64,000 bases of DNA from an uncultured Eubacteriales bacterium (GCA_964537875.1 CAZIDN010000006.1:30874-94873); one strand, 5' to 3'; positions 6,665 to 64,000 are shown, counted from the first letter of the stretch. A program made the numbers and translations. The notes: generated by a model not told the origin, from the letters alone.

Positions 6665-6696
6665 AATCGCCTGGGAGACGATCCGGAAACGGCCTC

Positions 6697-6730
6697 GCTC
6701 CCCATCCGGGTTTTTCACGCCGTTCCCGAG
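6697..6730 (+). terminator. Weak hairpin + T-run after the CoA-transferase gene
   Basis: ccgga-N17-tccgg followed by gttttt; the stem is only 5 bp. Confidence 0.2.
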
Positions 6731-7044
6731 CCCTCCTTCTCGGCGGCGAAGAACTCGCTTCCCGGCATCGATTTTACGGATGTCCGCCGGGAAGCTCAGA
6801 CAACTTCGCCGGCCGGCTTCTTCCGAGCCGGCTGTCCTCTAAGGAGGACTCGGGAAGGCTAAACCCTCTATGGTCGCTTCATCCGTCTCCGGATCGTCTC
6901 CCTTCTCAACCCAAACAAAATGGAAGAAAACCTATTGATATATTCGTTCCGGCGAGGCGTTCAGCGACAGCTGGTTTTTTGCATTTTATAGAAGATTGAG
7001 GTAGACTTTTGGCCTTAATAAAATCACGGGAAGGTTAGTGAGTC

Positions 7045-7893: not shown

Positions 7894-7901
7894 CCATCGG
7901 C

Positions 7902-8564: not shown

Positions 8565-8567
8565 GCG

Positions 8568-9785: not shown

Positions 9786-9798
9786 GAAGGACGAAGAT

Positions 9799-18336: not shown

Positions 18337-18348
18337 AGGAGAAACCCG

Positions 18349-21300: not shown

Positions 21301-21393
21301 GCGGTCCCGGATTTTCAATTCGAAGCCGCGTTCGCGCCCGATGATCCGATCCCCTTCGAGCCGGGCAAAGGCTGGCTGCTCATCTTAGAATAA
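18349..21393 (+). CDS. Secreted putative glycoside hydrolase (TIM-barrel, DUF4091/GH123-like)
   Basis: Signal peptide; 1014 aa; central region with NTINIHHAN...YIDDVAFD blocks typical of DUF4091 glycosidase-like proteins. Confidence 0.45.
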   Translation: MGILDVRKTALFPRAVILWLALPFLSMLFGQEIPYRTGEWNGDELGNHRAVLRVEAMADAVRAHISWRRRDLQPEKKRLMVFDAKSGARLKNICVVDISREFGEIVFEPAAGPGDYYVYYMPYKLTGSRNYPNARYLEPEVTADSAWLGRNGLAVARLSTNDLKKFPEAKLVEFQSVDEFSNVYPMEVIATAGETQSLLAKDPQTPFLLFPEDRKYPIRMTDDLPLRWVLTGPLGIFRGEAARGEFYAFQIGVYAGRQPIPDLDVRFSDLKNAEAGVSIPASALRCLNTGGINWNGEPFKKVCAVDKGKIQALWCGVQVPEDCRPGLYEGMVSVAPTGIPERHVKISLKVGSDVLPDAGDGQPERQSRLRWLDSRIAFDDEIVAPFTALVVKGTTIHCLGRSVTLGPSGFPLRVQSFFAPEVTHLVEKGRDVLAGPVKLTVEDAAGALLSWKEAGLKFTKQRPGAVAWESRNVSDALVMDCRAQMEMDGFIEFKVRLTAAKPLDVQDIRLEIPIVKDAAKYMMGLGFKGGVRPSEFQWAWDQKKNQDALWIGDVNAGVQCSLRAENYSRPLNTNFYLSKPLNMPPSWFNEGKGGCRVKEAGSGVVLLTATSGPRTLRPGDELHFDFNFLLTPFKTIDTNAQWSTRFIHSFKTLDEVARTGANTINIHHANDINPYINYPFLRPKEMKAYIDEAHRRGFKVKIYNTIRELSNRAAELFGLRSLGSEIFSRGPGGGYSWLQEHVGSDYIAAWFVPQLKDAAIINSGMSRWHNYYLEGLNWLAKNVGIDGLYIDDVAFDRTTMKRARKVLDRTRPGALIDLHSANQYNPRDGFASSANLYLEHFPYINRLWFGEYFDYFNSPPDYWLIEVSGIPFGLMGEMLEDGGNPWRGMIYGMTNRLPWSGNNPARLWKVWDDFGMQDSRMIGYWVDSCPVKTDHKDVLATAYVKKGKVLVSVASWARGPVLSRLKIDWKALGLDPSKAKLRAPAVPDFQFEAAFAPDDPIPFEPGKGWLLILE

Positions 21394-30424: not shown

Positions 30425-30536
30425 AGGAGGCGCAGGGGCAATGCCAAGGCCGATTGGAAATCACGTGACCGGAAATGCTTTCCAGGCCCCCGAAGTCTTT
30501 GAAAAAAAATGCCCGTTATGGTATAAGGAAAAAGAC

Positions 30537-40700: not shown

Positions 40701-43700
40701 CTAATCTTTGCTAGTCTTTTTAACGGTTCCCGGCCTGCCCCTGACAAACTGGATGCGGACCCGATCCTGGACCTCTTCTTCGAAGCGGACGGTTTCGTAC
40801 TTTGCTTGGGACAGGTACTTAAGGTGGGCGCGGAGATAGCTCAATCCCTGCATGGATAGGAAATCGAGCCAGGCACCCCGGGCCGTTTCGTCCATGGCTT
40901 CCACCGTCTCGTCGACGAACGTGACTTGGGTCCTGGCCGAGAGACGGCTTTCGGTCGAAGAGCGCCTCTTGGCGTAAAGGTTGACGCCGTCGTAGAGCTC
41001 GAGATAGTCGAGATGGGGCTGCCAGCGGGCGGCCCAGCGGATGTAGCGATCGGCGAATCTTTTATTGGACTCCTTGAGCTTTTCGTTCGACTGCATTTCG
41101 GCGATGATGAAACTCTTCAATTCGTCGCCGGCGTCTTTGTATTTTTGGTAGAGGGGAAGGCTGAGGGCTCTGTAAAAGACATACCAGCCCCTGGGGATCC
41201 AGTAATCGCGGAAGAGATACGGCGAGTAATTGGAAAACTGCTGGACCCACTCGTGGGAGGGATATCCGTGGAGGTTGAGGTAGATGTCCGGCTGCCATTT
41301 GCTGTTCAGGCTCCTCCTCACCAGGGCTTCCGGAAGGATCGGCCGCGCGCTGCCGCCCATGGAGCCGACATCGATTCCTAGAGAGCTGTAGCGGCCGGCG
41401 TGGAGGCTGTGGAACGGCGTCAATTTCTGAAGGTCATAGGCCATGGCGGCGCCGTCGGGATTTTCCATCGGATGAAACACGAAGTTAATCTTGTTGATAT
41501 AATCCTGGTAGGTCTTGTCCGTCGCCAGGAGCTCGGCCAGCTTGAGAATATAGCTCGTCGAGGACACCTCGTTGGCGTGCTGACGCCCGCTGAGATAGAT
41601 CGTCGGCTTGGCTGCGATCAGGCGCGGCAGCGAGACATACTTGCCGAGCGGCTTGTAGACTTCGATCACGGGAACATCCCGGCCTTCATAGGATTTTCCC
41701 CCGATATATGTCCTTACGGCCGCGAATTGGGCCAAACGGTCGACGGTTTCCTGGACCATTTCCGGGGATAAGATTTTTGTCGTATCGACGATAGCTTCGC
41801 CCGGTTTAAGAGGCCTGGGGGCCGGCTTTTCCGCGGATTCGGCGGCCGTGATGGGAAGGATTTCCTCTTTTTCCATCTCCTTGCATTTCATCTTGAGCGT
41901 AAGGCTGTTGAGATTCGGAAAGCTCAAGGCCGTCGGCAGCAGGCCTTTATCCTGTAGATCTCTGTAAGAAGCCAGGATATCCAGCAGGGCCAGGTACTCG
42001 GCGTCCTTCTCGAACTCGAGCTCTATGACCAGACTCTCGATTTTTTCTTCAAGCCCGTTGTAGATGAGCGCCGGAACCTGGAGCGGTTTCGGCTTGAGCG
42101 AAGGGAAGGCGATCTTACGGCTGAATTCTTCACGGCCCTTTTCTTTCCATTTGATGATCATCTGGGGCGAAGAGGCCGTCCAGTCCTCGAATGATACTTT
42201 GACCTTGGGCCGTTCTCCTTCCGTGGAAGGGTGGATCAAGGGAAAGATATTGCCGGGCGCGGAAACGCGCGACGTGTCTTCAGGCAGCTCCTGGTCCTCG
42301 ATGTCGAGCTCCGTGATGCCCCTGAGAAAATCAAGCGTGTCGAAATAGAGCTCGTCATGGATGGCCTCCAGCGAGCTGATGATCTCTTCATCCAGCCCGA
42401 TCCGGAAATCCGGCTCGCTGGACCACAGCTCGACGAGCAGCCGCTTGAAATATGGTTGTTTGGAGTAGGTCGGCTCGCTGTTTGTTTTTTTGAGGATGTG
42501 GGAATAGACGGGAGCGAGAACTTCATCCTGGTAATATTCCCAGATTTTTTCGAGGTCGGATTTGAGCGAAACATCGGAGAGGACCTCTTTTCCCGCCTCG
42601 ATCTTCAGCCAGCCAGTGGTCAACTTCACCTTTCCCCATTCGGGGACGGGCTTGAGGTAGGAGATTTCGCGGATGCGCGGCGAAAAGCTCTGCTGGAGCA
42701 AGAGTGCGTTTTTCGCGTCATGGGCCGAAACTTCGTAAGTGGCGCCGCCCGGAGGCTTGAGCTCAAAATGGATCTTGTCCAGGGGGATGTTGAGGTCTCT
42801 GGCCATGATCTCGTCCACGGGATAGAGCTCCTGCAGCCAGCGCGCCGGCTCGGCATAGAACCTCTTAGGCTGACTCAGGTTTTCCTTCTCCTCGGCGAAT
42901 TTGATGACGATCTGGCCGACGGGCTTGCCTCTGAGCTGCGGCAGAATTCTTTCCTGCAGCCAGAAAAAGCCCTGCTTGTAGGCAGAGAGGACTTCGACTT
43001 CGGCCCGCGTTTTTTGGCTTTCCGGAAATAGGGCTTCGACCTGTTTTTTGACTTTCTGCCGGATGTCCGGGGATTCGCTGAGCCCCAGGCTGATCTTGAG
43101 TGGCCCGGCCGGGCTTTCCAGGGCTTTCAATTTTTCCTCGATGAGCTTCAGGGCGTCCTCGGCTTCCCAGGAAAAAGTCTGCTCTTTTTCAAAGATTTTC
43201 TTGCCGTCATTCAAGAGAAAGCTCTTGACCTCGAGCGATTCAGTTTTGACGGCGGCCGCCAGGCTCTTCTTCACATCCTCCTCGAATTTCGGGTTCGGTC
43301 GCGGCAGATAGATCTCGGCCTTGAACGATTCCATGTCTTTGTCCTTGAAATCTTCCAGGACCTTTTTCAAGCCCTGGGCGAGAAAAGCTTCCGCGCTGCC
43401 GTGCTCGCCTTTGAAAAACTTTTCCAGGGCCGCCGCGGCATCGCCGATCTGCGGGCGGCCGTCCTTGTATTCGTCGAGATAGGGAAAAGTCTGGTTGAAA
43501 TAGGCCAGGATTTTTTCCATCCCGATATTGTCTGCTGCCAGGAAGGCCAGGGCGCTGGACTTGTTGAAAGCTTTGGGAATCACCTTGGCCATCCCCCAGG
43601 CGTTCTCCAGGGATGGCGCCTTCAATTTTCCGATCCTCTGCAGCTCCTGGGTGAGAATATTGGAGCCGATCAGGATGGGTGCGACCAAGGCTTTTTTGTG

Positions 43701-44840
43701 CTCGATCTCTTTATCGAGATAGACGACGGGAAAAGAGGCTCCGGCCGTTCCGAGCATGAGCCTCGAAGAGATTTGGGCGATTCCTTTGATGTTCGAGCCC
43801 TGGGGAATGATCACCTGAGAGTCCAGGGAGTCGATCGTTCCGTCTCGATCGATATCGCCATAGACGCCCTTGGTCGTCAAAAGGCTGAGAAGGTCGAATT
43901 CTTTGCCGGCCCCGTCCGCTCTCGGCGTGTCTTTGAAGGACGGTGTCAGCATCCGTCTTGGAGCGCCCATGCGGGGGATGACAACCTGCATGTTCTTTTT
44001 CCCGTAGCGGAGCGAGAAGGTCAATTGGGCGCAGCCCGGGTAGGAAAGAAAATCTGTCCTCTGGCCTTTTTCGTGCTGCCGGCCAAGCGCATCGAAGGCC
44101 TTGAAAGTTTTTTGCTGGTCCTCCTCGTCCGTGAAATAGATCTCCACAGTCAGGTCCCTGATCTCGCCCGAGTGGAAGGAGAGTTTTTTGAGCGGGGCCG
44201 GGCTTTTTTTGGGAGGCGGAAATTCATAGAGGGCGGATTTGATGATGGTTTTTTGGAGACTCACGCCCTCGGCGGTCAGGAACTGGGTGATGTCTTTTTC
44301 GAGCGAGAGGAATGTCGCCCCTTCTTCTCGTCCCCAGATTTCCCAGAAGTACGGCCAGCGGAGGAAAAAGGCGCGGCCGGTCTGAAGCAAGGCGTCCTCG
44401 CTGCTGGCGACGAGAAGGATGCCGTTCTGGTCCTTGAGGGAAAAGGCGGCGACGAGTCCCTGGTTCGGCCCGAGCGAGGGCACGAGGATGTCCTCATCCT
44501 TGATGGCTTCCCTGAGCCATTTCACGTTCGTCCCGATGAAAATGGGATTTTCCAGGCGTTCGATGCGGGAAATATCGGACTCCCTTCTGACGAGGGCAAA
44601 ATCCTGGACCAGGCTTTCCAGGTTGGCCCGGGCGGCAATGTCGGAGGCCACGGCCAGCTCGGCGGCGTTGGCATTGTCGGGGATGACGATGCAAAGCGTG
44701 ATCTTATCGACCAGCAAATCGCCGTCGAGGTCCTTGAGGGCCTTGCCGAGCAGGAACATCTGGGAAAGGCTGGCTACCTGGGCCGGGAGCGCATGGACAA
44801 ACAGCAGCATGATGCAGAGCGCCACAAAGGTTTTTTTCAT
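40701..44840 (-). CDS. Very large secreted protein (1379 aa) with M14 zinc-carboxypeptidase-like domain
   Basis: Signal peptide MKKTFVALCIMLLFVHALPAQ. C-terminal quarter carries M14 motifs HANE (HxxE), NPDG and NLHGYPSHEW; the N-terminal ~1000 aa are unassignable. Confidence 0.6.
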   Translation of the reverse strand: MKKTFVALCIMLLFVHALPAQVASLSQMFLLGKALKDLDGDLLVDKITLCIVIPDNANAAELAVASDIAARANLESLVQDFALVRRESDISRIERLENPIFIGTNVKWLREAIKDEDILVPSLGPNQGLVAAFSLKDQNGILLVASSEDALLQTGRAFFLRWPYFWEIWGREEGATFLSLEKDITQFLTAEGVSLQKTIIKSALYEFPPPKKSPAPLKKLSFHSGEIRDLTVEIYFTDEEDQQKTFKAFDALGRQHEKGQRTDFLSYPGCAQLTFSLRYGKKNMQVVIPRMGAPRRMLTPSFKDTPRADGAGKEFDLLSLLTTKGVYGDIDRDGTIDSLDSQVIIPQGSNIKGIAQISSRLMLGTAGASFPVVYLDKEIEHKKALVAPILIGSNILTQELQRIGKLKAPSLENAWGMAKVIPKAFNKSSALAFLAADNIGMEKILAYFNQTFPYLDEYKDGRPQIGDAAAALEKFFKGEHGSAEAFLAQGLKKVLEDFKDKDMESFKAEIYLPRPNPKFEEDVKKSLAAAVKTESLEVKSFLLNDGKKIFEKEQTFSWEAEDALKLIEEKLKALESPAGPLKISLGLSESPDIRQKVKKQVEALFPESQKTRAEVEVLSAYKQGFFWLQERILPQLRGKPVGQIVIKFAEEKENLSQPKRFYAEPARWLQELYPVDEIMARDLNIPLDKIHFELKPPGGATYEVSAHDAKNALLLQQSFSPRIREISYLKPVPEWGKVKLTTGWLKIEAGKEVLSDVSLKSDLEKIWEYYQDEVLAPVYSHILKKTNSEPTYSKQPYFKRLLVELWSSEPDFRIGLDEEIISSLEAIHDELYFDTLDFLRGITELDIEDQELPEDTSRVSAPGNIFPLIHPSTEGERPKVKVSFEDWTASSPQMIIKWKEKGREEFSRKIAFPSLKPKPLQVPALIYNGLEEKIESLVIELEFEKDAEYLALLDILASYRDLQDKGLLPTALSFPNLNSLTLKMKCKEMEKEEILPITAAESAEKPAPRPLKPGEAIVDTTKILSPEMVQETVDRLAQFAAVRTYIGGKSYEGRDVPVIEVYKPLGKYVSLPRLIAAKPTIYLSGRQHANEVSSTSYILKLAELLATDKTYQDYINKINFVFHPMENPDGAAMAYDLQKLTPFHSLHAGRYSSLGIDVGSMGGSARPILPEALVRRSLNSKWQPDIYLNLHGYPSHEWVQQFSNYSPYLFRDYWIPRGWYVFYRALSLPLYQKYKDAGDELKSFIIAEMQSNEKLKESNKRFADRYIRWAARWQPHLDYLELYDGVNLYAKRRSSTESRLSARTQVTFVDETVEAMDETARGAWLDFLSMQGLSYLRAHLKYLSQAKYETVRFEEEVQDRVRIQFVRGRPGTVKKTSKD

Positions 44841-53488: not shown

Positions 53489-55192
53489 TCAATCGTTCTC
53501 CAGCGTCGAAGTATCGCCGATCTCTTCGCCCCATTCCTTGGCCTTGAGGATGCGGCGCATGATCTTTCCGCTCCGGGTCTTGGGGAGCGAATCGATATAT
53601 TCGATCTCCTGGGGCATGGCCAGCGGCGAGAGCTTTTTCCGGATGAAGTTCATGATTTCAAGCTCCAAATCCGAGCTGGCCGCAAAACCGGGCTTAAGCG
53701 TGACAAAGGCCTTGACGACCTCCATGTTGAGCGGGTCGGGCTTGCTGACGACCGCGGATTCCGCGACGGCGGGATGCTCGAGCAGGGCGGATTCGACCTC
53801 GAACGGACTGACCAGGTGTCCGGCCGTATTGATGACGTCGTCATCGCGGCCGACGAACCAGAAGTAGCCTTCTTTATCGATGCTGGCCCTGTCTCCCGTG
53901 AGGTACCAGCCGTTTTTAAACTTATTTTTATAGGCCTCTTCATTGTTCCAATAGGTCCGCATCATCGACGGCCAGCCGGGCTTGATGGCGATCAAGCCGA
54001 TCTTTCCCGGCTCGCCGTAGGGCTCATAGGTTTTCGGGTCGACGACCGTGGCCGTGATCCCGGGGAATGGTTTTCCCATGGAGCCCGGCTTGATCTTCAT
54101 CCCGGGATAGTTGCTGATCATGATCGAGCCGGTCTCGGTCTGCCAGAAGCTGTCATGAAAGGGCTTGCCGAAGACTTTTTCCGACCAGATGACCGCTTCC
54201 GGGTTGAGGGGCTCGCCGACGCTGGCCAGATAGCGGAGGGAGGAATGGTCGTATTTTTTCACGAGCTCATGGCTGGCCTTCATGAGAGAGCGGATCGCCG
54301 TCGGCGCCGAATACCACATGGTCACCTTGTATTTTTCGATGAATCGGTACCAGGCCTCGGCCGAAAATCCGCTGTCCAGGACGGCCTGGGTGATGCCCGT
54401 GCTCCAAGGACCGATGATCCCGTAGGAGGTGCCGGTGACCCAGCCGGGGTCGGCCGTGCACCAATAGATATCATTCTCCCGAAGGTCGAGGACCCATTTG
54501 GTCGTCAGGTATTGAGAGATGAGCGAGTAATGGACATGCTTGACCCCCTTGGGCTGGCCGGTCGTTCCCGATGTATAGTGTAGAAGGGAGGGGGATTCGG
54601 CCGTGGTCGGGAAAATATCAAAGGAATCGACCGGATCGGCTTTTTCCAACGAGAAAGCGACTTCCCTTTCTTTGAGAGGGGTCTTTCCGTCGTAGTCGAC
54701 GATGATGATATGCTTCAAACTGGGAAGCTTGTCCAGGATCTTGCGGACCTTGGGGGCGTGTTTTTTCTGAGTGAAGACAGCGGACGTTTTGGCGTTATCC
54801 AGCCTGACAAAGAGCGACTCATCGCCGAATGCGGAAAAGAGAGGCTGGGCGATAGCCCCCGTTTTCAGGATTCCCAGCAGACCGATGTAGAGCTCGGGGA
54901 CCCTGTCCATAAAGAGGCAGACGCGCTCTTCATTCTTGATGCCCAGTCCGCGCAGGAAGGCTCCGATCGTATTGCTCGCCCGGCGGATGTCATGATAAGT
55001 GTATTTCTTCTCGATCCCGCCCAGGCCTTCCCAGAGGAGCGCGAGCTTTTCGCCCTTGCCCTGTTGGCAGATGCGGTCCGAACAGTACCAGCCGATGTTG
55101 ATGACCTGGCCCGGTTTGTAGTCAAGTTCCTTCTCGGAGATGGACCAGCTGAAGTTTTTGAGCCGTTCTTCGTAGGAGCCGATATTTGACAT
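53489..55192 (-). CDS. AMP-forming acyl-CoA synthetase, acetyl-CoA-synthetase-like family
   Basis: AMP-binding motif YTSGTTGQPKG, the ...WYLTGDRA...GRDDDVINTAGHLV block, C-terminal SGKIMRR lysine; 567 aa. Confidence 0.8.
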   Translation of the reverse strand: MSNIGSYEERLKNFSWSISEKELDYKPGQVINIGWYCSDRICQQGKGEKLALLWEGLGGIEKKYTYHDIRRASNTIGAFLRGLGIKNEERVCLFMDRVPELYIGLLGILKTGAIAQPLFSAFGDESLFVRLDNAKTSAVFTQKKHAPKVRKILDKLPSLKHIIIVDYDGKTPLKEREVAFSLEKADPVDSFDIFPTTAESPSLLHYTSGTTGQPKGVKHVHYSLISQYLTTKWVLDLRENDIYWCTADPGWVTGTSYGIIGPWSTGITQAVLDSGFSAEAWYRFIEKYKVTMWYSAPTAIRSLMKASHELVKKYDHSSLRYLASVGEPLNPEAVIWSEKVFGKPFHDSFWQTETGSIMISNYPGMKIKPGSMGKPFPGITATVVDPKTYEPYGEPGKIGLIAIKPGWPSMMRTYWNNEEAYKNKFKNGWYLTGDRASIDKEGYFWFVGRDDDVINTAGHLVSPFEVESALLEHPAVAESAVVSKPDPLNMEVVKAFVTLKPGFAASSDLELEIMNFIRKKLSPLAMPQEIEYIDSLPKTRSGKIMRRILKAKEWGEEIGDTSTLEND

Positions 55193-55294
55193 GGAGTATC
55201 CTTTAGGATTGGATTTTAAAGGGATAAAATTATACCGTATTCTCTCGAAAAATCAAAACGGCCGCGCTCGAGAGGATGCCAATCCCTTTGAGCA

Positions 55295-55323
55295 TTGACA
55301 TTTCTCCATAACTGCAATAAATA
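55295..55323 (+). promoter_or_regulatory. Sigma-70-like promoter at the island's 5' edge
   Basis: TTGACA - 17 nt - TAAATA upstream of the ATG at 55354. Confidence 0.3.
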
Positions 55324-55353
55324 ATAAGCATAATGTATAAGGAAGGAAGGGGC

Positions 55354-56700
55354 ATGTCCAAAAGACAGCTGTCTATATCAATCCTGGCGATTTCCTTAGG
55401 GATGTTTTTTCTGGAAATCCCTTGGTTAATTTCCCAGGAAACTTCTGCCAACAAAGCCGCCAAGCTCAAGATCGGTGAGATGAAATTTGAGACAGATCTC
55501 GCCGGCCGGAAAGCGCCCGCAGGAAAACTTTTTTTGGTGCTTGAAACGGAGTGGGAAAATATCCACCCCAAGCAGAAAATCGAAAAGAGCAGGCTGGAGG
55601 GCAAGCAAGACCGGACGATGGGGGTGGGCGGGCTCACCGGGGGAGGGCAAAAAGGAAAAGAGGAGTATGTAGATGCGGATGTCGCCTATCAAGTCCCGAA
55701 TTTTTTTGACCATGCTTACTGCCTGGCCGACGGAAAAAGCTACCCATTGGACAGGCTGACTGAGCAAACTCAGGGCGGCATAGGATTGAAAAAAACATTC
55801 TCCATAGCAAAATTCGGAGAAAAGAAACAGGTCACTTTCGTCTACGTTGTTCCCAAGGACGCTAAAAATCTGGCATTTCAGTTCTTCGATTATTCCAACG
55901 GCCATCTCCTGGTCCCGATCAAAGGCGACTTAGCATTGGCTCGCGGAGCAGGGGGAGGCGCCGGAAAGGTCTTGGATCAGTTTAAGGATGATTTTATCGA
56001 TATTTCGGCTAACAAAATGGATTTCCAAGCCGAGTTTAAAGGCGAAAAAGCGCCCGCAGGTTGGCAATACACCGTCGTCGAGCTCGGGGGGAAGAGCCTT
56101 TCTGAGGGAAATATCATTCAGATTAGGCCAAAAGATTATCTCTGGCTGAGCACGAACGATGGTTATCTCTACTATTGCGGCGGCGCGACGACAACAGAGG
56201 GAGGGCTTATCCGTTTTACCCCTGAGGTATACCAAAATCAAGAAGTCGCCTTTCTCGTGCCAGCGGCCGTGAAGGACTTTACCCTCGGAGTGCGGATTAA
56301 GAACAAGGTCTATAATCTCAAGCTTAATCCAAGATTTCAGCCGGAAATCCCCAAGGCCCTGGCCTCGCATCGCGATGGGAAGACGATGGAGATTTTTGTT
56401 TACGGCCTGCGTCAGGAGGGCGACAAAACCATCCTCGACCTCGGCATCCAGTCGCTCGTGAACAGCGGGATCGAGATCCAGACCAGCCGGCAATTTATCC
56501 TCAAGACCGGCGAGGAGAGCGTCAATTTTGATGAGGAGTCCACAGGGGCGCTCTTTCATCGTCCGCCCGACCCCTTCACGATCCCGCCGCAGACATTCAT
56601 CCGGTTTGAGCTGGCTTATAAAAGCGGCAAGGTGCCAACCGCACTCTACTACCGCGGTTACGAAAGCGAAAAGACGTTTGAGCTTAGTAAAATCAGGTAA
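55354..56700 (+). CDS. Secreted hypothetical protein with two DUF4352-like beta-sandwich repeats
   Basis: Signal peptide; internal duplication (AGRKAPAGKLFLVLETEWEN... / KGEKAPAGWQYTVVELGG...) resembling the DUF4352 pattern; 448 aa. Confidence 0.45.
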   Translation: MSKRQLSISILAISLGMFFLEIPWLISQETSANKAAKLKIGEMKFETDLAGRKAPAGKLFLVLETEWENIHPKQKIEKSRLEGKQDRTMGVGGLTGGGQKGKEEYVDADVAYQVPNFFDHAYCLADGKSYPLDRLTEQTQGGIGLKKTFSIAKFGEKKQVTFVYVVPKDAKNLAFQFFDYSNGHLLVPIKGDLALARGAGGGAGKVLDQFKDDFIDISANKMDFQAEFKGEKAPAGWQYTVVELGGKSLSEGNIIQIRPKDYLWLSTNDGYLYYCGGATTTEGGLIRFTPEVYQNQEVAFLVPAAVKDFTLGVRIKNKVYNLKLNPRFQPEIPKALASHRDGKTMEIFVYGLRQEGDKTILDLGIQSLVNSGIEIQTSRQFILKTGEESVNFDEESTGALFHRPPDPFTIPPQTFIRFELAYKSGKVPTALYYRGYESEKTFELSKIR

Positions 56701-56750
56701 TCATAGATATTTATTCATGACTTAATATGCGATTCAAAAAGGAGGGTCGG

Positions 56751-59294
56751 ATGGCTGACTTTAACCGTCATTTAAAGAAAAGCAAGATCTTGGTTTTTTT
56801 CACCATTTTCGCATTTCTCTATATGTCGTGTTTCACCTCCTGTTCCAAATCCGGCAAAAAGGAAAAGGAGGAAGTGGCGAGGGGAGCCGATGATGCCGCA
56901 AAAGCCGCAGCGACAGCGGGAGAGGGACAAGCGATTGCAGAGCTGCAATCAGCTGAAGAATCTGGAAAAGAAAGGCCTGTCTCCCAAGAGGATTTAAAAA
57001 GGGCGACTGAAAAACTAGAAGCCTATTTTCAAGCGCTTGAGGAAGCTGCGAAGGCAATGCCCAGAGATACGTTCGATCCCCAAGCTATTTTAGAAAAGAT
57101 TGGCAAAGATTATACAGCTCTTTTTCTATGGGTCCAGAGAAATACATCTTTTATTCCCTATCAAGGAGTGCTTCGGGGTCCAGTGGGAGTCCTGATGGAG
57201 AGGCGAGGGAACAGTCTGGATCGCGCTCTATTGCTGTACGAGATACTGCGACTTGCCGGCTATGAGGTCAAGTTAGCGCGCGGAAAATTATCTGAAGACC
57301 AAGCGAAAAATATCCTTGCCAAACGACGTGAGCTGATTGAGGAAGAAATTCTTCCCCAAACCAAAATGAGCGCGAATGAAATGGGCGAGATAATTCAGCC
57401 CTATGTAGATAAATATCAGCTTGATAAAAATAGGATTCTCCAGGCCGTTAATAAGAACCGGGTTGGCAAGGACGATCTCTTCGAAAAAGTCAGAACTCGC
57501 GTTTCTGACCAAACTCGGCGAATAACTCAATTTCTCGAAGATTCCGACATTAAATCCGGGACGGGCAAGGACCGTGGCCGATATTCCTTAATTCAAGATC
57601 ATTGGTGGGTTCAGATGAAACAGGATGAAGGTTGGCTTGACCTGGACGTCAGCGTCGATCAACCAACTCCAGGGAAAAAGCTGGTCGCCGCTGACGAAAC
57701 GGTCGCTTTCCAGGATCTGCCGGAGGATCTTTATCATCGCATAATAATCCGGCTTATGGTTGAGCAGTCGACGGAGAGCGGACTCCAAGAAAGCGTTGTT
57801 TTAGAAATCCCGCTGAAAGCTGTAGATTTAATCGGCAAACAGATAATCCTTCGACACATTCCGATGAATTGGCCCCAGGAAGGCAGCCTTTTTAATGAAG
57901 ATGACCCGATTGGCAAGATCAAGAATCTTGCTGCCAACGAAAAAGAATGGCTTCCGGTCTTTGTTATTGGTTCTGAAGAGATCGCCCAAAGCAGCTTTCT
58001 GGATACGGGAGAGGTCAATAAAAATCCAGGAAGAAAGAGACGAGCCGCCGGCCCGGGTGGATTGGTCGGCGGCATGTTTAATGCCCTTGCAGGAGGGGAG
58101 GGCGAAAAGAAGCCTGAGAAGTTATCGTGCCTTACGGCAGAATGGATTGAGTACGAGATAGTATCCCCTGACTTTCCGGCCAACAGAATTCGTCGTCAGG
58201 TATTCGATCTTATTGGCCCTAACGCGCGCTTGGGGCATCGAAGGGCTGATCCAGAAGCTATTGAATCAAGGAGGTTAGAGAGAGCCTTGGCTTTGCTCGG
58301 AGAGACCGAAATCGCCGCTATTGTCGGTCGTTTGTCGCCTGATTTTCTTGCTCGGATGTTAGCCGACAAACTCATTGTCAATAAAGAGATACTGATTAGT
58401 TTACTTTGTTCTAAGAATCTCTATTCCCCGTCTCAAATCAACGAAGCGATTGAAAAGATTGTCCCTTTCCCCGGATTAGAGTACAGCCTCGCCATGGTCA
58501 GGGATATGGGGAGTCGTCATCGATCCGCTATTTTCCTCAGCCAGCCAAATATATTGGCGTTTCACAAATATCCACGGCTCGATCCCAACGGCGAAATCAG
58601 TTTTTGTCAGGCGCTTGATATAGTCAACAACGAAATTTCCCTTGTTCCGGAAACAAAGAATCCTCTCTTAGTCGCTCTGGAACAGGGAGTCTTGGATACA
58701 AATTGGGAGGCATTTTTATTGGATCCCTGCGGAAAAGCTGAAAACACGGCGCAGATTTTCGCCGAACTAGATTCCAGGAAGGTTGAATGGCGCCTGCTCA
58801 GAGACATAAATGACCCTGGATTGAAAAACTTGGGATTATCGCCCGACGCGCTTGCGCTAATAGGACAAGAATTGTCTGAAGGCTATATTGTTTTTGTTCC
58901 TAAGATAAGCAGGGCAGCTGGTGGTTATCCTCCGGTCGGCTGGTGGAGAATGAACCCTTTAACGGGCAACATTTTGGGCATAGGAGAGCGCGGGTGGGGC
59001 CAAGGAACCACTGAGTATGTCAAAATTATCAGAGCTGTCCTTAAGTTTATAATGCCCGCGTTAGTGTGCGGGATCATCAAAGGACATCAAGCAGGAAAAC
59101 CAGGAGCCACGACCGGCCAACAGGTAGAGGCCGTTGTCATAATAATATCATGCATCGCAGGAGGCGGCTTGTCTATGGTCGGAATGGTCCTTCCGAATCT
59201 TGCTGTCGGCCAAGTCCTGCAGCTCATCGGAGATATTATCAGCTATTCTTTATCCGGTTATAGCGTCATAAGTTATTTTGTTGGTGAACACTAA
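56751..59294 (+). CDS. Lipoprotein with divergent transglutaminase-like domain (Cys replaced by Ser) and C-terminal hydrophobic anchor
   Basis: AAGGAGGG RBS then the ATG at 56751. Lipobox-like ...FLYMSC/FTSC. TGase-like core GNSLDRALLLYEILRLAGYEVKLARG (canonical G-x-C-x-D-F-A...) and downstream DHWWVQMKQDEGWLDLD (canonical H-x-W-x-E-x-y...GW-x-x-D). C-terminal 70 aa are strongly hydrophobic. Confidence 0.55.
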   Translation: MADFNRHLKKSKILVFFTIFAFLYMSCFTSCSKSGKKEKEEVARGADDAAKAAATAGEGQAIAELQSAEESGKERPVSQEDLKRATEKLEAYFQALEEAAKAMPRDTFDPQAILEKIGKDYTALFLWVQRNTSFIPYQGVLRGPVGVLMERRGNSLDRALLLYEILRLAGYEVKLARGKLSEDQAKNILAKRRELIEEEILPQTKMSANEMGEIIQPYVDKYQLDKNRILQAVNKNRVGKDDLFEKVRTRVSDQTRRITQFLEDSDIKSGTGKDRGRYSLIQDHWWVQMKQDEGWLDLDVSVDQPTPGKKLVAADETVAFQDLPEDLYHRIIIRLMVEQSTESGLQESVVLEIPLKAVDLIGKQIILRHIPMNWPQEGSLFNEDDPIGKIKNLAANEKEWLPVFVIGSEEIAQSSFLDTGEVNKNPGRKRRAAGPGGLVGGMFNALAGGEGEKKPEKLSCLTAEWIEYEIVSPDFPANRIRRQVFDLIGPNARLGHRRADPEAIESRRLERALALLGETEIAAIVGRLSPDFLARMLADKLIVNKEILISLLCSKNLYSPSQINEAIEKIVPFPGLEYSLAMVRDMGSRHRSAIFLSQPNILAFHKYPRLDPNGEISFCQALDIVNNEISLVPETKNPLLVALEQGVLDTNWEAFLLDPCGKAENTAQIFAELDSRKVEWRLLRDINDPGLKNLGLSPDALALIGQELSEGYIVFVPKISRAAGGYPPVGWWRMNPLTGNILGIGERGWGQGTTEYVKIIRAVLKFIMPALVCGIIKGHQAGKPGATTGQQVEAVVIIISCIAGGGLSMVGMVLPNLAVGQVLQLIGDIISYSLSGYSVISYFVGEH

Positions 59295-59452
59295 GATGAA
59301 GAGAAGGCAAGAAAGAACGGCAACGCGGAAGACCACCAACATAAGAGCTGGCTGTAACCTTTGAAAATATCTGTTTTCTTCTTTTTTATTTAATTAAGAG
59401 GGTACCGGGCAAAAAGTTAATATAAACACACGGAAAAGAGAAGGAGGCGGAA

Positions 59453-62400
59453 ATGCAAGAATACCTATCCATCAGACGCTTTATTCCAGGGTTATTGCCG
59501 ATTTTTTTATTCGTGCTTCTATTTATCCCATCCTCCGCCCAGGTCAAATCCGAAACCGAGCCGAATGACGCAATGGAGCAGGCCAATGAATTCCGGGTCG
59601 GCGAGAGCATCGAAGGCTATTTACAAGATCGTGACTATGATTGGTATAAGCTCATTGTGAATAAGCCGGGCAAGAACTATATCAGGATCGATCTCTCAGG
59701 AGTCCCCGGCATAAATGCGGAACTCCGACTTTGCGATGAGAAGGGCAATAGGATATGGGAAGTGAATGACGCCGAAGCCGGCGGTGCCGAACAGATTGTC
59801 CATTTCCCAGTCAATCCAGGAATTTATTACATCCGGATCTATGGGGGCGGCAAAGCCACAAAGGAAAAATATATTTTAAGCTCACGGATCATGGATCCCT
59901 GGCAAGAGGGCGAGGAATCCGAGCCGAACGACCGTCAAGAATCGGCCAATGAGCTGAAGTTGGGACAAGTTGTCGGAGGATTCTTTGCCAAACGATACGA
60001 TGAGGACTGGTTTAAGCTGATCGTTGACAAGCCCGGCAAAAGCCTTGTCCTAATCGATATCACGGCTGTCCCGGGAGTCAATAGTTCGCTCACCTTGCGC
60101 GACGCAAACGGTCGAAGCATTTGGGATGTCAATGAAGCAGAAGCGGGTGGTCCGGAATCCATCTTCAATCTTGCCTTGGCTCAAGGCATGTATTTTATCC
60201 AACTTTATGCTCGGGAATTCAACTATAACAACCATTATGTGCTTCATACGCGCATCCTCGGCCCATGGCAGGAAGGCCTGGAGGCTGAACCGAATAATCG
60301 AATGGAGGATGCCACGGAGCTCAGGCTCGGCCAGAGTGTGGAAGGCTATGTTCAATATAATAGCGATGACGATTATTACAAGCTGATTATCGACAAACCC
60401 GGCAAGAACGATATCCAGGTTGACCTTAGCGCGGTTCCGGGAGTGGATATGAGGTTTGGAATTACTGATAAAGACAGCAAAGAGCTTTGGCGCGCTAACG
60501 ATGGCTCAAAAGGCGAGCCGGAATCCGTCTCGCATTTAACCCTCGGAGAAGGCACCTATTATATCTGGGTGGAAGGCTATCAGAAGAATATCACTGACAA
60601 GTATGTCTTAAGCACGCGCTTACTTGGAGCCTGGCAAGAAGGCACTGAGGCCGAACCCAACGGTGATATTAAGCGGGCTAATGAAATCAAGCTGAACACG
60701 CCGCTGACCGGCCGGATCAATGAAAATAGCGACTATGACTATTATGTTCTGAACGTCCCTGAGCCTGGGATTGAGACGATTGACATGCAGATCTCCGGCG
60801 TTCCTGACGTGAGATGGAATTTTGAGCTGTTCGACCAAAAAGAAAACCGGTTGGATGAATCAAGGTGGCATGAGGCCGGACAGGGCGAAGAGATCGTCAA
60901 GATGAAATTCAAGCCTGGCACCTATTATCTAAGCGTGCGAGTCTATAACGGAAAAAATCCGGGTAGCGTATACACCCTTTATGCCGGGAAACCCCAAAAG
61001 CCGCCAGCGACGCCGGAGGAAGTCCGGCAAGCGCTGGTCAAGGCCCTCGATTATCTAGCTTCAGGACAGCAAAAAGACGGCTCATGGCTTCCAAATTCTT
61101 ATGCGCAAGCATTCACGGGTCTTTCTCTCATGGCTTTTATCGGCGGCAAATGTGCCCAGAAAGATTATTCAGCCAATATCAAGGGAGCGATCAACTACTT
61201 AAAATCACAGTATAAGCCCAGCTCAAAGTATCCCGAAGGCTCTGAAAATGCGGCGTATTATGGAGGAACGCTCGGGACAGAAAATATGTATCAACATGCG
61301 ATCGCCACCCTGGCTGTGATCGAAGCCCTTGCCGATTTAGATGATCCGAGCCTCGAACCCATCGCCCAAGACGCGCTCAGCTTAATCATCCGCGCTCAGA
61401 ATACGGAACACAAGCCCGAGACGCTCGGAGGGCCTATCAAGCCCGACTCCCGCGCCTACGGCGGCTGGCGGTACAATCCGAACAGCACTGGCAGCGACAT
61501 CTCGGTCACGGGCTGGCAGGTTCTCGCCCTTAAGGGCGCCGTCAATGCAGGATTTTCTATTCCCGAATATGTCTTTCCCTCGGCAGCTCGGTTCGTCAGG
61601 TCTCTTCAAGGCAAAGAGGACGGCTCGTTCAGGTACGAATCTCCCGGAGACACAGGCAATTCCTGCGCTCGGGCCGGAATGGGAGCTCTCTCCTTACAAC
61701 TCAGCGGTTTTCCTCAAGATCCTGCGATTCCTCCCGCTTTGCGATTTATGCAGGATTACGCGCCGCGTTGGAATATCGAAACGCGGGGAGACGGCTATCC
61801 ATTCTATTATTGGTACTATGGCACGCGGGCGATGTATCTTGCGGGCGGCGACGACTGGCGCATCTGGAAAGACTGGATATGTCGCTTCCTCGTTGACCAT
61901 CAGAACAAGGACGGAAGCTGGGATGGCGTAAACAACGAAGATAGACTTGACACTTATAGAGTTGCGCTTGGCGCTTTAATGCTCGAATTCTGCTGTGGGC
62001 ATGTGCCGATCTATATGTCGCCGGTGAAGCGGCTGGGGCCGGCGTCTATCAGGGTGAATTTTGAGAAAGGCGCTGAGAAGGAAATCGCTAAGAATGTCGA
62101 GATCATCATGGACGCCTCAAATTCCATGACCGGGCTGATCGGAAAGGAGACAAAGATGACCGTGGCCCGGCGGGTCCTGACCCAGATCATCAACGGATTG
62201 CCGGAGACGATGAATGTAGGCTTCCGGGTCTACGGCCATCGCTATCCGACGGACGCCTACCAGCAGGCCTGTCAAGATACGGAGCTTCTGCTGCCCATCG
62301 GGCCGGTCCAGAAGGCCAAGCTCGTGGAGCTGGTGAACAAGATCCAAACAAAAGGCCGGACGCCGCTTGTCCTCTCTGTGCTTCAAGCGATTAAAGACTT

Positions 62401-62854
62401 TGAAAAGCTGCCGAACGGGAGCGTCGTTTTGGTGACGGACGGGATCGAGAGCTGCAACGGAGACATCAAATCGATCGCTCCGGCGATCAAAAAGTCGGGC
62501 CTTGATCTCAAAGTTCATATTGTGGGATTCGACATCAAGGAGAAGGAATCCCGGGAGCAGCTGGAAGCGATCGCCAAATCCACGGAAGGGATGTATCTGG
62601 ATGCCAAGGATGCCAAAGGGCTGCTATCAGCCCTCGAGCAGGCGTTGAAGATCGAGTATATGGTCCTTGACGAGAAAGGCGAGGTCAAGGCTAAGGGTTT
62701 CGTGGGCGGGGAAGCGGTCAAGATTCCGGAAGGCACCTATACGCTTCGGGTCATGCTGGCGCCGCAGCCTTTAGAGACAAAAGTAAACTTAGCCTCGGGC
62801 GAAAGGCCAATTTTTATCCTGAAAAAAGAGGCCGGGAAGTGGGCCCTGAAATAG
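59453..62854 (+). CDS. Secreted multidomain protein: 4 x PPC (pre-peptidase C-terminal) domains + QW-repeat alpha/alpha toroid (prenyltransferase/squalene-cyclase-like) + vWA + C-terminal beta domain
   Basis: Signal peptide; four ~115-aa repeats each starting E(A/S)EPN(D/N/G)...A(N/T)E and containing D(Y/W)(D/Y)(W/Y)YKL..(N/D)KPGK (nt 59555-60988). QxxDGSW repeats (QQKDGSW, GGWRYNPNSTGSDISVTGWQVLAL, HQNKDGSW; nt 61010-62017). vWA with MIDAS DASNS...T...D (nt 62090-62647). Confidence 0.6.
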   Translation: MQEYLSIRRFIPGLLPIFLFVLLFIPSSAQVKSETEPNDAMEQANEFRVGESIEGYLQDRDYDWYKLIVNKPGKNYIRIDLSGVPGINAELRLCDEKGNRIWEVNDAEAGGAEQIVHFPVNPGIYYIRIYGGGKATKEKYILSSRIMDPWQEGEESEPNDRQESANELKLGQVVGGFFAKRYDEDWFKLIVDKPGKSLVLIDITAVPGVNSSLTLRDANGRSIWDVNEAEAGGPESIFNLALAQGMYFIQLYAREFNYNNHYVLHTRILGPWQEGLEAEPNNRMEDATELRLGQSVEGYVQYNSDDDYYKLIIDKPGKNDIQVDLSAVPGVDMRFGITDKDSKELWRANDGSKGEPESVSHLTLGEGTYYIWVEGYQKNITDKYVLSTRLLGAWQEGTEAEPNGDIKRANEIKLNTPLTGRINENSDYDYYVLNVPEPGIETIDMQISGVPDVRWNFELFDQKENRLDESRWHEAGQGEEIVKMKFKPGTYYLSVRVYNGKNPGSVYTLYAGKPQKPPATPEEVRQALVKALDYLASGQQKDGSWLPNSYAQAFTGLSLMAFIGGKCAQKDYSANIKGAINYLKSQYKPSSKYPEGSENAAYYGGTLGTENMYQHAIATLAVIEALADLDDPSLEPIAQDALSLIIRAQNTEHKPETLGGPIKPDSRAYGGWRYNPNSTGSDISVTGWQVLALKGAVNAGFSIPEYVFPSAARFVRSLQGKEDGSFRYESPGDTGNSCARAGMGALSLQLSGFPQDPAIPPALRFMQDYAPRWNIETRGDGYPFYYWYYGTRAMYLAGGDDWRIWKDWICRFLVDHQNKDGSWDGVNNEDRLDTYRVALGALMLEFCCGHVPIYMSPVKRLGPASIRVNFEKGAEKEIAKNVEIIMDASNSMTGLIGKETKMTVARRVLTQIINGLPETMNVGFRVYGHRYPTDAYQQACQDTELLLPIGPVQKAKLVELVNKIQTKGRTPLVLSVLQAIKDFEKLPNGSVVLVTDGIESCNGDIKSIAPAIKKSGLDLKVHIVGFDIKEKESREQLEAIAKSTEGMYLDAKDAKGLLSALEQALKIEYMVLDEKGEVKAKGFVGGEAVKIPEGTYTLRVMLAPQPLETKVNLASGERPIFILKKEAGKWALK

Positions 62855-62909
62855 AAAACTTAAAACTATTCATCTATTGAATTAAGCTGTTTTTAAAAGC
62901 AAATTGAAT

Positions 62910-63896
62910 TTATTGCGGCTTCACGGCCGAGGCAAGCCAGTGGGGCATCGGCGGCGGAAGGGGACGCCGCTCAAAACTTTGAAATCCGGCTTCGGCCAGC
63001 CAGGCTTCAAGCTCGTCCTCTGAAAATACCCAGCCGTGCGGTGTCGTCAACGCCATGTTCAAGGCGAAGAGCGCCGAGAACTTCGGCTGAGTGTGGGTCG
63101 AATCGGTCATCATGTCAAGAACGTAGAGTGTGCCGCCTGCGACCATGGCCGCATGGGCTCGCCGGAGAAGGTCGCGAATGTCGGCTGGTTCTTCTTGGTG
63201 TAAAACGCCGAAAAAGATGACGACGTCGTTTTCGCCCGGAAACCTTACTTTATGATAATCACCGGCTAGGGTTTGGACGCAACTTTGCATCCCGGATTGT
63301 GCAATCAACTCATCAGCGATCCGAACGATTTCAGGAAGGTCGAGCACAGTGCATTTGACCGTGGGGAAAGCTTTGGCAATTAACATCGAATAAGTCCCGG
63401 GCCCGCCGCCAACGTCGAGAAGCCTGCGCCGGCCATTTAAGTCGAGTTGGGGGATGACTGCCTGACCTATGGCTAAAGCCCGGCCGTGCATGGCCAGGAC
63501 GAACGTGCGCGTGCGTTCCGGATCTTCGCCAAGGTGGAGCTCCGGGCGCTCGACCGGCCGGCCGCTCCTCACCATCTCGGCGAGCTTACCCCAAGCGTTA
63601 TAGACATCGCGATTATATCGGATCGCGCCGCTTAGGTCGGCCGGCGAGCCGGGGACGAGGAAAGCGGCCGCTTCAGGCGTGTTGCGGTAGATGTTCCCGG
63701 CTTTGGACAGAAGCCCTACGGCTACGCATGCGTCAAGAAGAAGGCGCGCGCCCCGGAGGTTGAGGCTGCAGGCGGCGGCGACCGTGGGCGCGTCGGCTTC
63801 ACCAAGCTCTGCCAGCGTTCGAAAAATACCCAGGTCGGAAGAAGTAAAAAGCAGGCATGATTCGTAGAAGGCGCTGGCCATGTCCAGGATACGCAT
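62910..63896 (-). CDS. Class I SAM-dependent O-methyltransferase (Methyltransf_2 with N-terminal dimerisation/winged-helix domain)
   Basis: SAM motif I LLDVGGGPGTY; plant-type OMT / CrtF-like architecture; 328 aa. Confidence 0.75.
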   Translation of the reverse strand: MRILDMASAFYESCLLFTSSDLGIFRTLAELGEADAPTVAAACSLNLRGARLLLDACVAVGLLSKAGNIYRNTPEAAAFLVPGSPADLSGAIRYNRDVYNAWGKLAEMVRSGRPVERPELHLGEDPERTRTFVLAMHGRALAIGQAVIPQLDLNGRRRLLDVGGGPGTYSMLIAKAFPTVKCTVLDLPEIVRIADELIAQSGMQSCVQTLAGDYHKVRFPGENDVVIFFGVLHQEEPADIRDLLRRAHAAMVAGGTLYVLDMMTDSTHTQPKFSALFALNMALTTPHGWVFSEDELEAWLAEAGFQSFERRPLPPPMPHWLASAVKPQ

Positions 63897-64000
63897 CGGC
63901 GTGCTACCTTTCTGGCTTGATACTTACGACAGAGCGAGTCCGCGGTCAGTTATATCACCGGCTCTTGATGGGGGTCAAGGGCACATCTCTTCCCAGCCGA

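Follow-up and report, generated by a model that had tools for sequence, protein, structure and literature searches.

PPC domains, a terpenoid-cyclase-type toroid and a MIDAS-bearing vWA domain combined in one exported protein with a transglutaminase-like membrane partner

The collagen-binding domains (CBDs) s3a-s3b of the Clostridium histolyticum collagenase ColG (5iku, 1nqd and 4hpk) are Ca2+-binding tandem members of the PPC family (PF04151), whose usual site is C-terminal to a secreted peptidase. Single α/α toroids of about 340 amino acids (aa) make up MstE (6sbb-6sbg) and the beta domains of squalene-hopene cyclase (SHC), oxidosqualene cyclase (OSC) and drimenyl-diphosphate synthase. MstE, a monodomain class II cyclase, protonates its substrate by a DxD rather than a DxDD motif (PMC12414744). 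A further toroid, AprG, is a cytoplasmic standalone enzyme of apramycin biosynthesis (9lfq, 9lfi and 9c95). Von Willebrand factor type A (vWA) domains with a complete metal ion-dependent adhesion site (MIDAS; DxSxS...T...D) are found in ITIH1 (6fpy), in anthrax toxin receptor 2 (ANTXR2) and in the I-like domain of integrin beta subunits. Here we describe C1133, an 1133-aa protein in which these three domain classes are joined. It is encoded in a 64,000-nucleotide stretch of DNA from an uncultured Eubacteriales bacterium (GCA_964537875.1 CAZIDN010000006.1:30874-94873; the whole stretch is called the window hereafter), next to a membrane protein that resembles LapG and other bacterial transglutaminase-like cysteine proteases. 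We tentatively interpret C1133 as a modular binding protein of the cell envelope.

The open reading frame (ORF) of C1133 begins with ATG and was confirmed as a real gene. Its features, in window coordinates, are as follows.

59453 to 62854, plus strand: whole coding sequence of C1133, including the stop codon (ORF call, Pfam and homologue search)
59453 to 59539, plus strand: Sec-type signal peptide, aa 1-29, with the junction ...IPSSA/QVK (hydrophobic segment at aa 5-32 and junction in homologues)
59552 to 59914, plus strand: PPC unit 1, aa 34-154, of the ColG CBD type, with Ca-ligand positions E34, E36, N38, D39, D61 and D63 conserved (Pfam, self-alignment and profile)
59915 to 60280, plus strand: PPC unit 2, aa 155-276, duplicated or lost in relatives
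60281 to 60646, plus strand: PPC unit 3, aa 277-398
60647 to 60988, plus strand: PPC unit 4, aa 399-512, adjacent to the toroid
61007 to 62017, plus strand: single-domain α/α toroid, aa ~519-855, of the terpenoid cyclase/prenyltransferase superfamily (model helices, Foldseek and profile)
62042 to 62644, plus strand: vWA domain, aa ~864-1064, with the complete MIDAS D887-A-S889-N-S891, T970 and D996 (model and Foldseek)
62651 to 62851, plus strand: C-terminal beta-sandwich tail, aa ~1067-1133, without a sorting signal (strands of the model)

A preliminary description of this DNA had proposed PPC, toroid and vWA domains in a secreted protein without a protease domain. Only PPC exceeded its cut-off among the three when the single sequence was searched with Pfam and NCBIfam. 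All three classes were confirmed by hidden Markov models (HMMs), family profiles, an AlphaFold2 model of aa 515-1133 (73-row alignment, mean pLDDT 92.2, pTM 0.76) and Foldseek, and the Pfam and NCBIfam scans detected no protease domain in C1133. A fifth module, the C-terminal beta-sandwich, had been overlooked. All parts of C1133 belong to known domain families and nothing points to a new fold. No Pfam, NCBIfam or PADLOC model covers the PPC-toroid-vWA architecture, and literature searches on the domain combination, on Aminicenantes with vWA and on AprG retrieved nothing relevant.

PF04151 matched C1133 with E=7e-19 (68.9 bits against a cut-off of 25.9). An HMM built from the units themselves found four of them, starting at aa 34, 155, 277 and 399; E-x-E-P-N stands at the head of each. 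They recur every 121-122 aa, or 363-366 bp, and the array spans 59552-60988/61006; the divergent DNA repeat proposed earlier thus has a longer period than the ~345 bp given for it. Pairwise identity among the four units is 29-47% for protein and 42-58% for DNA. This divergence of the DNA is too great for Tandem Repeats Finder, which detected no PPC array when run on 59000-63000. A profile of 35 full-length homologues matched the tandem ColG CBDs of 5iku in the PDB over two consecutive units (E=3e-16) and the single CBDs 1nqd, 4hpk and 3jqw at 1e-6 to 4e-5. The positions of the ColG double Ca2+ site (E-x-E-x-N-D/N plus D-x-D) are conserved in all four units in 35 of 35 sequences. The C1133 family therefore has the PF04151 fold, tandem order and Ca2+ ligand positions of the ColG domains, whereas its units are N-terminal, number from two to six and are not accompanied by a peptidase domain. 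The head position of the PPC units, which the preliminary description had noted as departing from the usual C-terminal one, was borne out.

Counts made with the unit HMM ranged from 2 to 6 PPC copies in complete relatives, and this variation accounts for length classes of ~890, 1010, 1132, 1251 and 1379 aa. The toroid-adjacent unit was kept in 19 of the 20 relatives checked and internal units were gained or lost; the six-unit form is arranged u1-u2-u3-u2-u3-u4 and the two-unit forms are mostly u3-u4. Such gain and loss of internal units next to a retained toroid-adjacent unit fits an array that acts as a spacer or provides avidity. Collagen is an unlikely ligand of C1133 because the host is an anaerobic environmental lineage. 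Giant proteins of 2700-3800 aa (P0373-P0375, P0379, P0387 and P0396) contain 9-12 stretches matching PPC units, indicating that long ColG-type arrays are used alone in other exported proteins.

Recognition of the toroid required profiles. SQHop_cyclase_C reached 16 bits on C1133, below the Pfam cut-off, and the NCBIfam squalene-cyclase matches were likewise sub-threshold, the full-length cyclase models TIGR01787 and TIGR01507 not being reached (27.3 against 322.7 bits and 18.6 against 431.1 bits, respectively). A single-sequence phmmer search of the PDB with aa 515-1133 returned chance matches only. A toroid-family profile consisting of the window segment and 45 standalone or related toroids matched squalene-hopene cyclase at 1.6e-18, lanosterol synthase at 2e-12, drimenyl-diphosphate synthase at 4e-11, Rab-GGTase beta at 5e-7, MstE at 6e-4 and, weakly, TEP1 at 3e-3. 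The toroid is predicted to be all-helical (model residues 7-333, pLDDT >90), and the best Foldseek match of this model was AprG (TMt 0.62-0.64); MstE (0.54-0.57), the prenylcyclase 6ij1 and drimenyl-diphosphate synthase were also matched. From the profile and the model we conclude that the toroid fold and superfamily are confirmed. With MstE and the SHC, OSC and drimenyl-diphosphate synthase beta domains the C1133 toroid shares its single-toroid size and QW-type motifs, and its family has a DxD-like motif with an invariant second Asp; it differs from MstE, SHC and OSC in having Gly at the first Asp and no conserved DxDD, and in being exported and fused to PPC and vWA domains. The alignment with AprG extends over ~370 columns at 15-17% identity. 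The AprG entries hold complexes with GlcNAc or GalNAc, so a small toroid of this kind can bind sugars.

A search with aa 515-870 found 2736 relatives, many of them standalone Planctomycetota proteins of 330-380 aa with 30-35% identity over 94% of the query. These secreted proteins match PF13243, PF13249 and PF00432 and are publicly named 'prenyltransferase/squalene oxidase repeat-containing' or 'terpene cyclase/mutase family protein'. They are homologous to C1133 over the whole toroid and share the invariant Y613, Q649, GGWRY, D682, S684, Y785, Y789, Q817 and W823, and they lack PPC, vWA and tail; four loci examined contained no neighbouring gene like that of the membrane partner described below. 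A set of toroid residues comprising C567, C810, C847-C848 and H850 (61151-61153, 61880-61882, 61991-61996 and 62000-62002) is invariant in the C1133 family; C567, C810 and CC847-848 are retained in a Gemmatimonadota relative and absent from the standalone Planctomycetota toroids. The invariant Cys residues could form a metal site or disulfides.

The preliminary description had viewed the toroid, with its QxxDGSW repeats and no DxDD or CGEQ, as a likely binding module. QxxDGSW is present in two strict copies (QQKDGSW at 539 and QNKDGSW at 817), to which only DGSF at 723 can be added; the other motifs are GGWRY at 670, G-S-D682-I-S, FYYWYYGTR at 784-792 and EFCCGH at 845-850. Taken literally the absence of DxDD is wrong, as DLDD occurs at aa 628-631. 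This site varies across the family (D22/E6/H2, L, N25/D6, D35) and DLDD is absent from most homologues; we therefore rejected it as a catalytic DxDD, and it holds that no DxDD is conserved. Because MstE uses DxD, the absence of DxDD alone does not exclude catalysis by the toroid.

A different Asp is conserved. In the motif GGWRY-x7-(D/G)-S-D682-(L/I)-S684-V-T-G-W, D682 and S684 are invariant down to distant standalone toroids, and the first Asp of the DxD-like motif is Gly680 in C1133 itself. A weak sub-alignment (5.7 bits) places D682 opposite the catalytic Asp455 (SDCTAE) of lanosterol synthase, and a short-segment PDB search with GGWRY...SDISVTGW for the register with SHC, OSC and MstE gave noise only. 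An Asp-containing GG(F/W)...D.(S/C)..W is a generic repeat of the whole superfamily, including the non-cyclase prenyltransferase beta subunits, so that conservation of this motif is expected without catalysis.

These observations bear on the possibility that the toroid is an exported enzyme, either a monodomain class II (protonation-initiated) cyclase-like one acting through Asp682 or a sugar- or polymer-modifying one like AprG or the PL10 lyases. The PPC array would then target the substrate as in collagenases, and the vWA domain would be an anchoring or regulatory module. Invariance of D682 and S684 from Aminicenantes to the standalone Planctomycetota toroids is what such an enzyme predicts, but the motif is the generic one of the superfamily and would be conserved irrespective of catalysis. 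Similarly, the OSC sub-alignment sets D682 opposite D455, yet it is far below significance, and MstE and SHC align with the C1133 sequence out of register. MstE provides a precedent for a monodomain DxD cyclase (PMC12414744) and is itself a Foldseek match, whereas C1133 has G680 at the first Asp of DxD. The substrates of class II cyclases are cytoplasmic or membrane isoprenoids and C1133 is exported; neighbourhood annotation found no isoprenoid-pathway genes in the gene cassette that contains C1133. Further points in favour of an enzyme are that AprG, the best structural match, is one, that a weak profile match to PL10 pectate lyase was obtained, that the toroid is extremely conserved, His850 and four to five Cys being invariant, and that secreted enzymes usually carry binding modules next to their catalytic domain. 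We consider an enzymatic toroid unlikely, if worth serious attention. A binding module rather than a canonical cyclase is the more likely interpretation, as first proposed, although the DxDD argument for it is weaker than stated in view of the DxD of MstE and the invariant Asp in D-S-D-(L/I)-S.

The toroid fold is also common to thioester domains, and weak TEP1 profile matches (E=0.003-0.03, over ~70 residues) would be compatible with a bacterial alpha-2-macroglobulin or complement-like thioester protein, i.e. a protease trap or covalent tagging device. However, a motif search of the whole protein found neither CGEQ nor CxEQ anywhere in C1133, in agreement with the preliminary description. Moreover, Pfam and NCBIfam detected no macroglobulin (MG) domains or A2M families, and the cyclase profile scores were 15 orders of magnitude better than those of TEP1. 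With these negatives and only marginal TEP1 matches, an alpha-2-macroglobulin or thioester identity is effectively refuted and we find it hardly credible.

The vWA domain also fell below the Pfam cut-offs on the single sequence (VWA_3, 22.9 against 27 bits; VWA_2 also below). In the AlphaFold2 model, residues ~350-550 consist of strands alternating with helices in a vWA-like manner, and Foldseek matched this region to ITIH1 (E=1.9e-8), ANTXR2, TFIIH p44 and integrin beta subunits. The ITIH1 match, over ~278 columns, covers more than the vWA core alone. The fold and the complete MIDAS are shared with ITIH1, ANTXR2 and integrin beta, whereas identity to them is 11-14%, no VIT domain is present and the Aminicenantes vWA domain stays below Pfam cut-offs. 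The MIDAS, correctly described as intact, has all five residues (D887, S889, S891, T970 and D996) invariant in 35 of 35 homologues. Beyond it, the tail is predicted to form a beta-sandwich of seven strands (pLDDT ~88-92), and the protein ends with ...GKWALK.

The N-terminus of C1133 is hydrophobic from aa 5 to 32 and continues with ...SSA/QVK; homologues share an A(L/Q)AQ(V/I)K junction before the first EPND motif. The window encodes a BamA-type Omp85 protein with three detected POTRA stretches (30441-32873), from which we conclude that the organism is diderm. A Sec signal alone in a diderm indicates export to the periplasm and not secretion to the outside, so that of the term 'secreted' in the preliminary description only Sec-type export is retained. 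The C-terminal signal that it had suggested looking for is missing: C1133 has no sortase, PEP-CTERM, type IX secretion system (T9SS) or LPXTG sorting signal and no C-terminal hydrophobic segment, its C-terminus being the folded beta-sandwich. C1133 was rejected as T9SS cargo, as the TIGR04183 (Por_Secre_tail) and PF18962 matches lie at aa 72-253, inside PPC units. TIGR04183 scored 43 bits against a cut-off of 23 on these units (window 59600-60250), and automated annotation could wrongly flag the C1133 family as T9SS cargo because both models match the N-terminal PPC units.

C1133 is the last of three co-directional genes, A455-B855-C1133, with gaps of 26 bp (A-B) and 158 bp (B-C). The other two members of this cassette are listed here.

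55333 to 56700, plus strand: A455, first cassette gene, encoding an exported, beta-rich protein of 455 aa (ORF and N-terminal hydrophobic segment at aa 12-35)
56727 to 59294, plus strand: B855, second cassette gene, encoding an exported, membrane-anchored, transglutaminase/LapG-like protein without the catalytic Cys

Export signals are present on all three proteins and additional membrane helices in B855 only. A455 had no Pfam or PADLOC match, and its family profile did not match the PDB. B855 probably starts at Met9 (56751), 8 codons downstream of the ORF start at 56727, because its homologues begin MADFNRHLKK. The exact A455 and C1133 sequences are present in the public collection and the exact 855-aa B855 sequence is absent from it. 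A promoter and terminator scan of 54900-64000 stayed at background level (13 promoters against 7.6±2.9 and 14 terminators against 11.7±3.0) and gave no operon boundaries. Most of the window has a G+C content of 0.53-0.59, but it drops to 0.48 at 56001-60000, over B855 and the 5' part of the C1133 gene. This drop could stem from a composition rich in Lys and Glu, or from a cassette that evolved elsewhere.

B855 matched Transglut_core weakly (Pfam, 18.8 against 23) and has the signature G-N-[S]...D-H-W-W-V-Q...W-x-D-L-D-P, in which N162, H292 and D307 are invariant. The position of the nucleophile, 163, is occupied by S16/A6/P3/D2 and never by Cys, leaving the Cys-His-Asp triad incomplete. The B855 family profile found nothing significant in the PDB. 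Its model (pLDDT 78, pTM 0.81) had 4u65 chain E as its sole PDB match in Foldseek, at a probability of 0.97 with E=0.14 over 105 columns and TM <= 0.30; 4u65 is the LapD-LapG complex, and from its length of 181 residues we take chain E to be LapG. B855 resembles LapG and related bacterial cysteine proteases in its papain/transglutaminase-like core with invariant His and Asp, and resembles LapG in its periplasmic context and its link to a large exported multidomain protein. In contrast to LapG, every member examined lacks the nucleophile Cys, and the proteins are 800-860 aa long with extra domains and C-terminal membrane helices. Hydrophobic C-terminal segments lie at 765-827 in B855, and hydrophobic C-terminal helices were found in all relatives compared; close relatives carry a lipobox-like F[ST][SG]C and others a signal peptide.

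MoxR-DUF58-TgpA and Bat operons combine vWA with transglutaminase-like domains. This pairing, together with marginal matches to BatA (E=0.037) and 4jdu (E=0.88), would suit a vWA component of a Bat/MoxR-type 'aerotolerance' operon, or else a conflict system directed against phages. The cassette, however, contains no MoxR AAA+, DUF58, TPR or BatD genes, and all of its proteins are exported. PADLOC gave no match for A455, B855 or C1133, and a defence system was rejected for this reason. We regard this class of explanations as very improbable.

More than 110 near-full-length homologues of C1133 (50-89% identity) were found in metagenomes and metagenome-assembled genomes (MAGs), assigned mostly, where named, to Ca. 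Aminicenantes. A scan of one genome per species gave 376 relatives, many MAGs having two or more copies. An exhaustive representative search gave 795 clusters at E<=1e-30. Among its top matches, the majority comprised only the vWA domain and tail, at the C-terminus of proteins of 1300-2000 aa, or only the PPC arrays of giant proteins; the full PPC-toroid-vWA order is present in few of the 50%-identity clusters. Homologues are called 'hypothetical', 'VWA domain-containing' or 'prenyltransferase/squalene oxidase repeat-containing', none of which is a functional name; a public sequence identical to C1133 has no name and the members of its cluster have no informative one. The architecture, called novel in the preliminary description, therefore belongs to no named or annotated family, and it is far from unique, the order PPC, toroid, vWA being found again in at least four other phyla. 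A common, already annotated family such as an alpha-2-macroglobulin subgroup, the outcome that would have undone the earlier proposal, was looked for; no covering model and only uninformative names were found. MAGs with close homologues (50-70% identity; L006-L072) are titled 'uncultured Eubacteriales', 'Clostridiales' or Ca. Aminicenantes alike, and a 1.6-kb contig with a homologue (L050) is binned as an ANME-2 archaeon; these discordant titles are probably due to mislabelling or mis-binning.

Linkage was assessed in the 50 loci whose C1133-like gene has 3 kb or more of upstream sequence, counting neighbours within 6 kb. A B855-like gene was present in 39 of the 50 loci and an A455-like gene in 30. 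The linkage was broken in the four loci of standalone toroids from Planctomycetota, in orphan second copies from MAGs whose full cassette lies elsewhere, and in two loci with an A455-like gene only (L006 and L029). On long contigs the trio surrounds the homologues, at times with an extra toroid-vWA gene or in permuted order, and the flanking genes are unrelated and differ between loci. In one locus (L001) an extra gene at 5502-7805 lies between those for B and C and encodes a 767-aa toroid-vWA protein without PPC.

Counterparts of C1133 are also found in Zixibacteria, Gemmatimonadota and Fermentibacteria as proteins of 944-973 aa, composed of one PPC unit, a toroid, one to three Big_7 Ig domains and a canonical PF00092 vWA domain. 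Their toroid is 39% identical to that of C1133 and keeps C567, C810 and CC847-848, and their genes lie directly downstream of a B855-like gene. A further unclassified MAG has a 1119-aa counterpart beside a divergently oriented B855-like gene. As these phyla share them, we conclude that the order PPC, toroid, vWA and the B855-like partner are ancient. The Aminicenantes also contain cassettes of the form A-X-B (L058 and L062-L072, ~5700-9830), in which X is a protein of 1328-1417 aa. The head of X has discoidin (F5/8-C), Sad1/UNC and ConA-like domains, one PPC unit and an extra vWA domain in place of the PPC-toroid part, and X ends with the same vWA domain and tail (56% identity over aa 865-1133). 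Since these cassettes keep the vWA domain and tail under another head, the heads are exchangeable and the vWA-tail unit is constant. This replacement of the toroid by lectin-like, non-catalytic modules in paralogous cassettes argues against the toroid being an enzyme.

Head swapping is also relevant to the possibility that the cassette is a structural scaffold of the periplasm or envelope, tethering or spacing layers or assembling a surface layer, with PPC rods and with the toroid and vWA domains as interaction hubs. The Sec signal without any T9SS, PEP-CTERM or LPXTG signal, the diderm envelope indicated by BamA and the membrane anchoring of B855 with its large exported body are all consistent with a scaffold, and stepwise variation in PPC length is what a molecular ruler would need. 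Genomes nevertheless contain several divergent cassettes and orphan copies with lectin-like head swaps, a pattern more typical of diversified ligand recognition than of one structural task, and ColG-type PPC modules are known as substrate-binding modules. A scaffold is in our view distinctly unlikely.

We favour, still tentatively, the reading of C1133 as a modular envelope binding protein, with a Ca2+-rigidified PPC array, a toroid as ligand head, a constant unit of MIDAS vWA and tail that docks on a partner, and B855 as membrane anchor. In this reading C1133 is the subunit that bears the head in a conserved three-gene envelope cassette of Ca. Aminicenantes, a diderm lineage. C1133 would be exported by Sec and its signal peptide cleaved, as the sequence features suggest. 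Each ColG-type PPC unit would bind Ca2+ at its conserved ExExN(D/N)...DxD residues to give a rigid, length-adjustable array, which may space the head from the membrane or add avidity for a polymeric ligand. The toroid, rich in invariant Tyr, Trp and Gln, would engage the ligand, most likely a glycan or another extended or hydrophobic molecule, acting neither as a DxDD cyclase nor as a thioester trap. The MIDAS metal would clamp an acidic side chain of a partner, and the vWA domain and tail would form a constant docking module coupling any head to the cassette partners, among which B855 would be held by its C-terminal membrane helices and its Cys-less core would be a binding pseudo-enzyme. The whole would work like a MIDAS adhesin of the integrin, ITIH or anthrax-receptor type that carries interchangeable heads for binding.

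Several points weigh against this reading. The analysis shows folds, conserved motifs, export signals, gene linkage and the exchange of heads; from these we infer the ligand, the MIDAS partner and its contact, the place where C1133 finally resides and the lack of catalysis by the toroid and by B855. The toroid, for example in FYYWYYGTR and EFCCGH, is conserved far beyond the needs of a passive binding module, its invariant Asp682 aligns, if weakly (5.7 bits), with Asp455 of lanosterol synthase, and a DxD motif suffices in MstE. The invariant His/Asp pair of B855, with Asn162, might still support some chemistry. Finally, no outer-membrane export signal was found, and C1133 may stay periplasmic, in which case 'adhesin' would be the wrong word. 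The B855-like and PPC-toroid-vWA genes might even constitute an undescribed multi-phylum envelope system in which the toroid acts outside the cytoplasm, through Asp682 and the Cys/His cluster, on an isoprenoid, lipid or glycan and is positioned at the membrane by the MIDAS vWA domain and the Cys-less partner; we consider this a long shot.

Other genes of the window were also noted. Two genes within 15874-21393 encode an 820-aa protein that ends in an F5/8 type C (discoidin) domain and, after it, a glycoside hydrolase of the GH123 family (full-length, 1014 aa, 1447 bits to PF19543), and this pair indicates a glycan-degrading lifestyle. A LonB/LonC-like AAA protease is encoded at 21405-23837. 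On the minus strand, a 1379-aa ORF at 40701-44840 has as its sole Pfam match a partial M14 zinc carboxypeptidase (aa 1041-1135), with ~1000 N-terminal residues without a match. An Rfam scan of the window found no family.

The modules of C1133 are well known, whereas their fusion and the conserved Cys-less transglutaminase-like membrane partner have no described counterpart in the retrievable literature. The system is common in Aminicenantes, whose genomes contain several cassettes, and is found again in Zixibacteria, Gemmatimonadota and Fermentibacteria, all abundant uncultured lineages of sediment and subsurface whose surface biology is barely described. If the toroid were catalytic, the terpene-cyclase superfamily would be extended to an extracytoplasmic role, and an active exported toroid would be the first enzyme of the class II cyclase superfamily to work outside the cytoplasm. 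If C1133 is a binding protein, these phyla would possess a modular platform in which a constant MIDAS docking unit carries interchangeable heads for environmental polymers, and this would aid the interpretation of many of their 'hypothetical' giant exported proteins. The cassette also offers a starting point for understanding the Planctomycetota proteins, secreted, standalone and numbering thousands, that are annotated as 'prenyltransferase/squalene oxidase repeat'.

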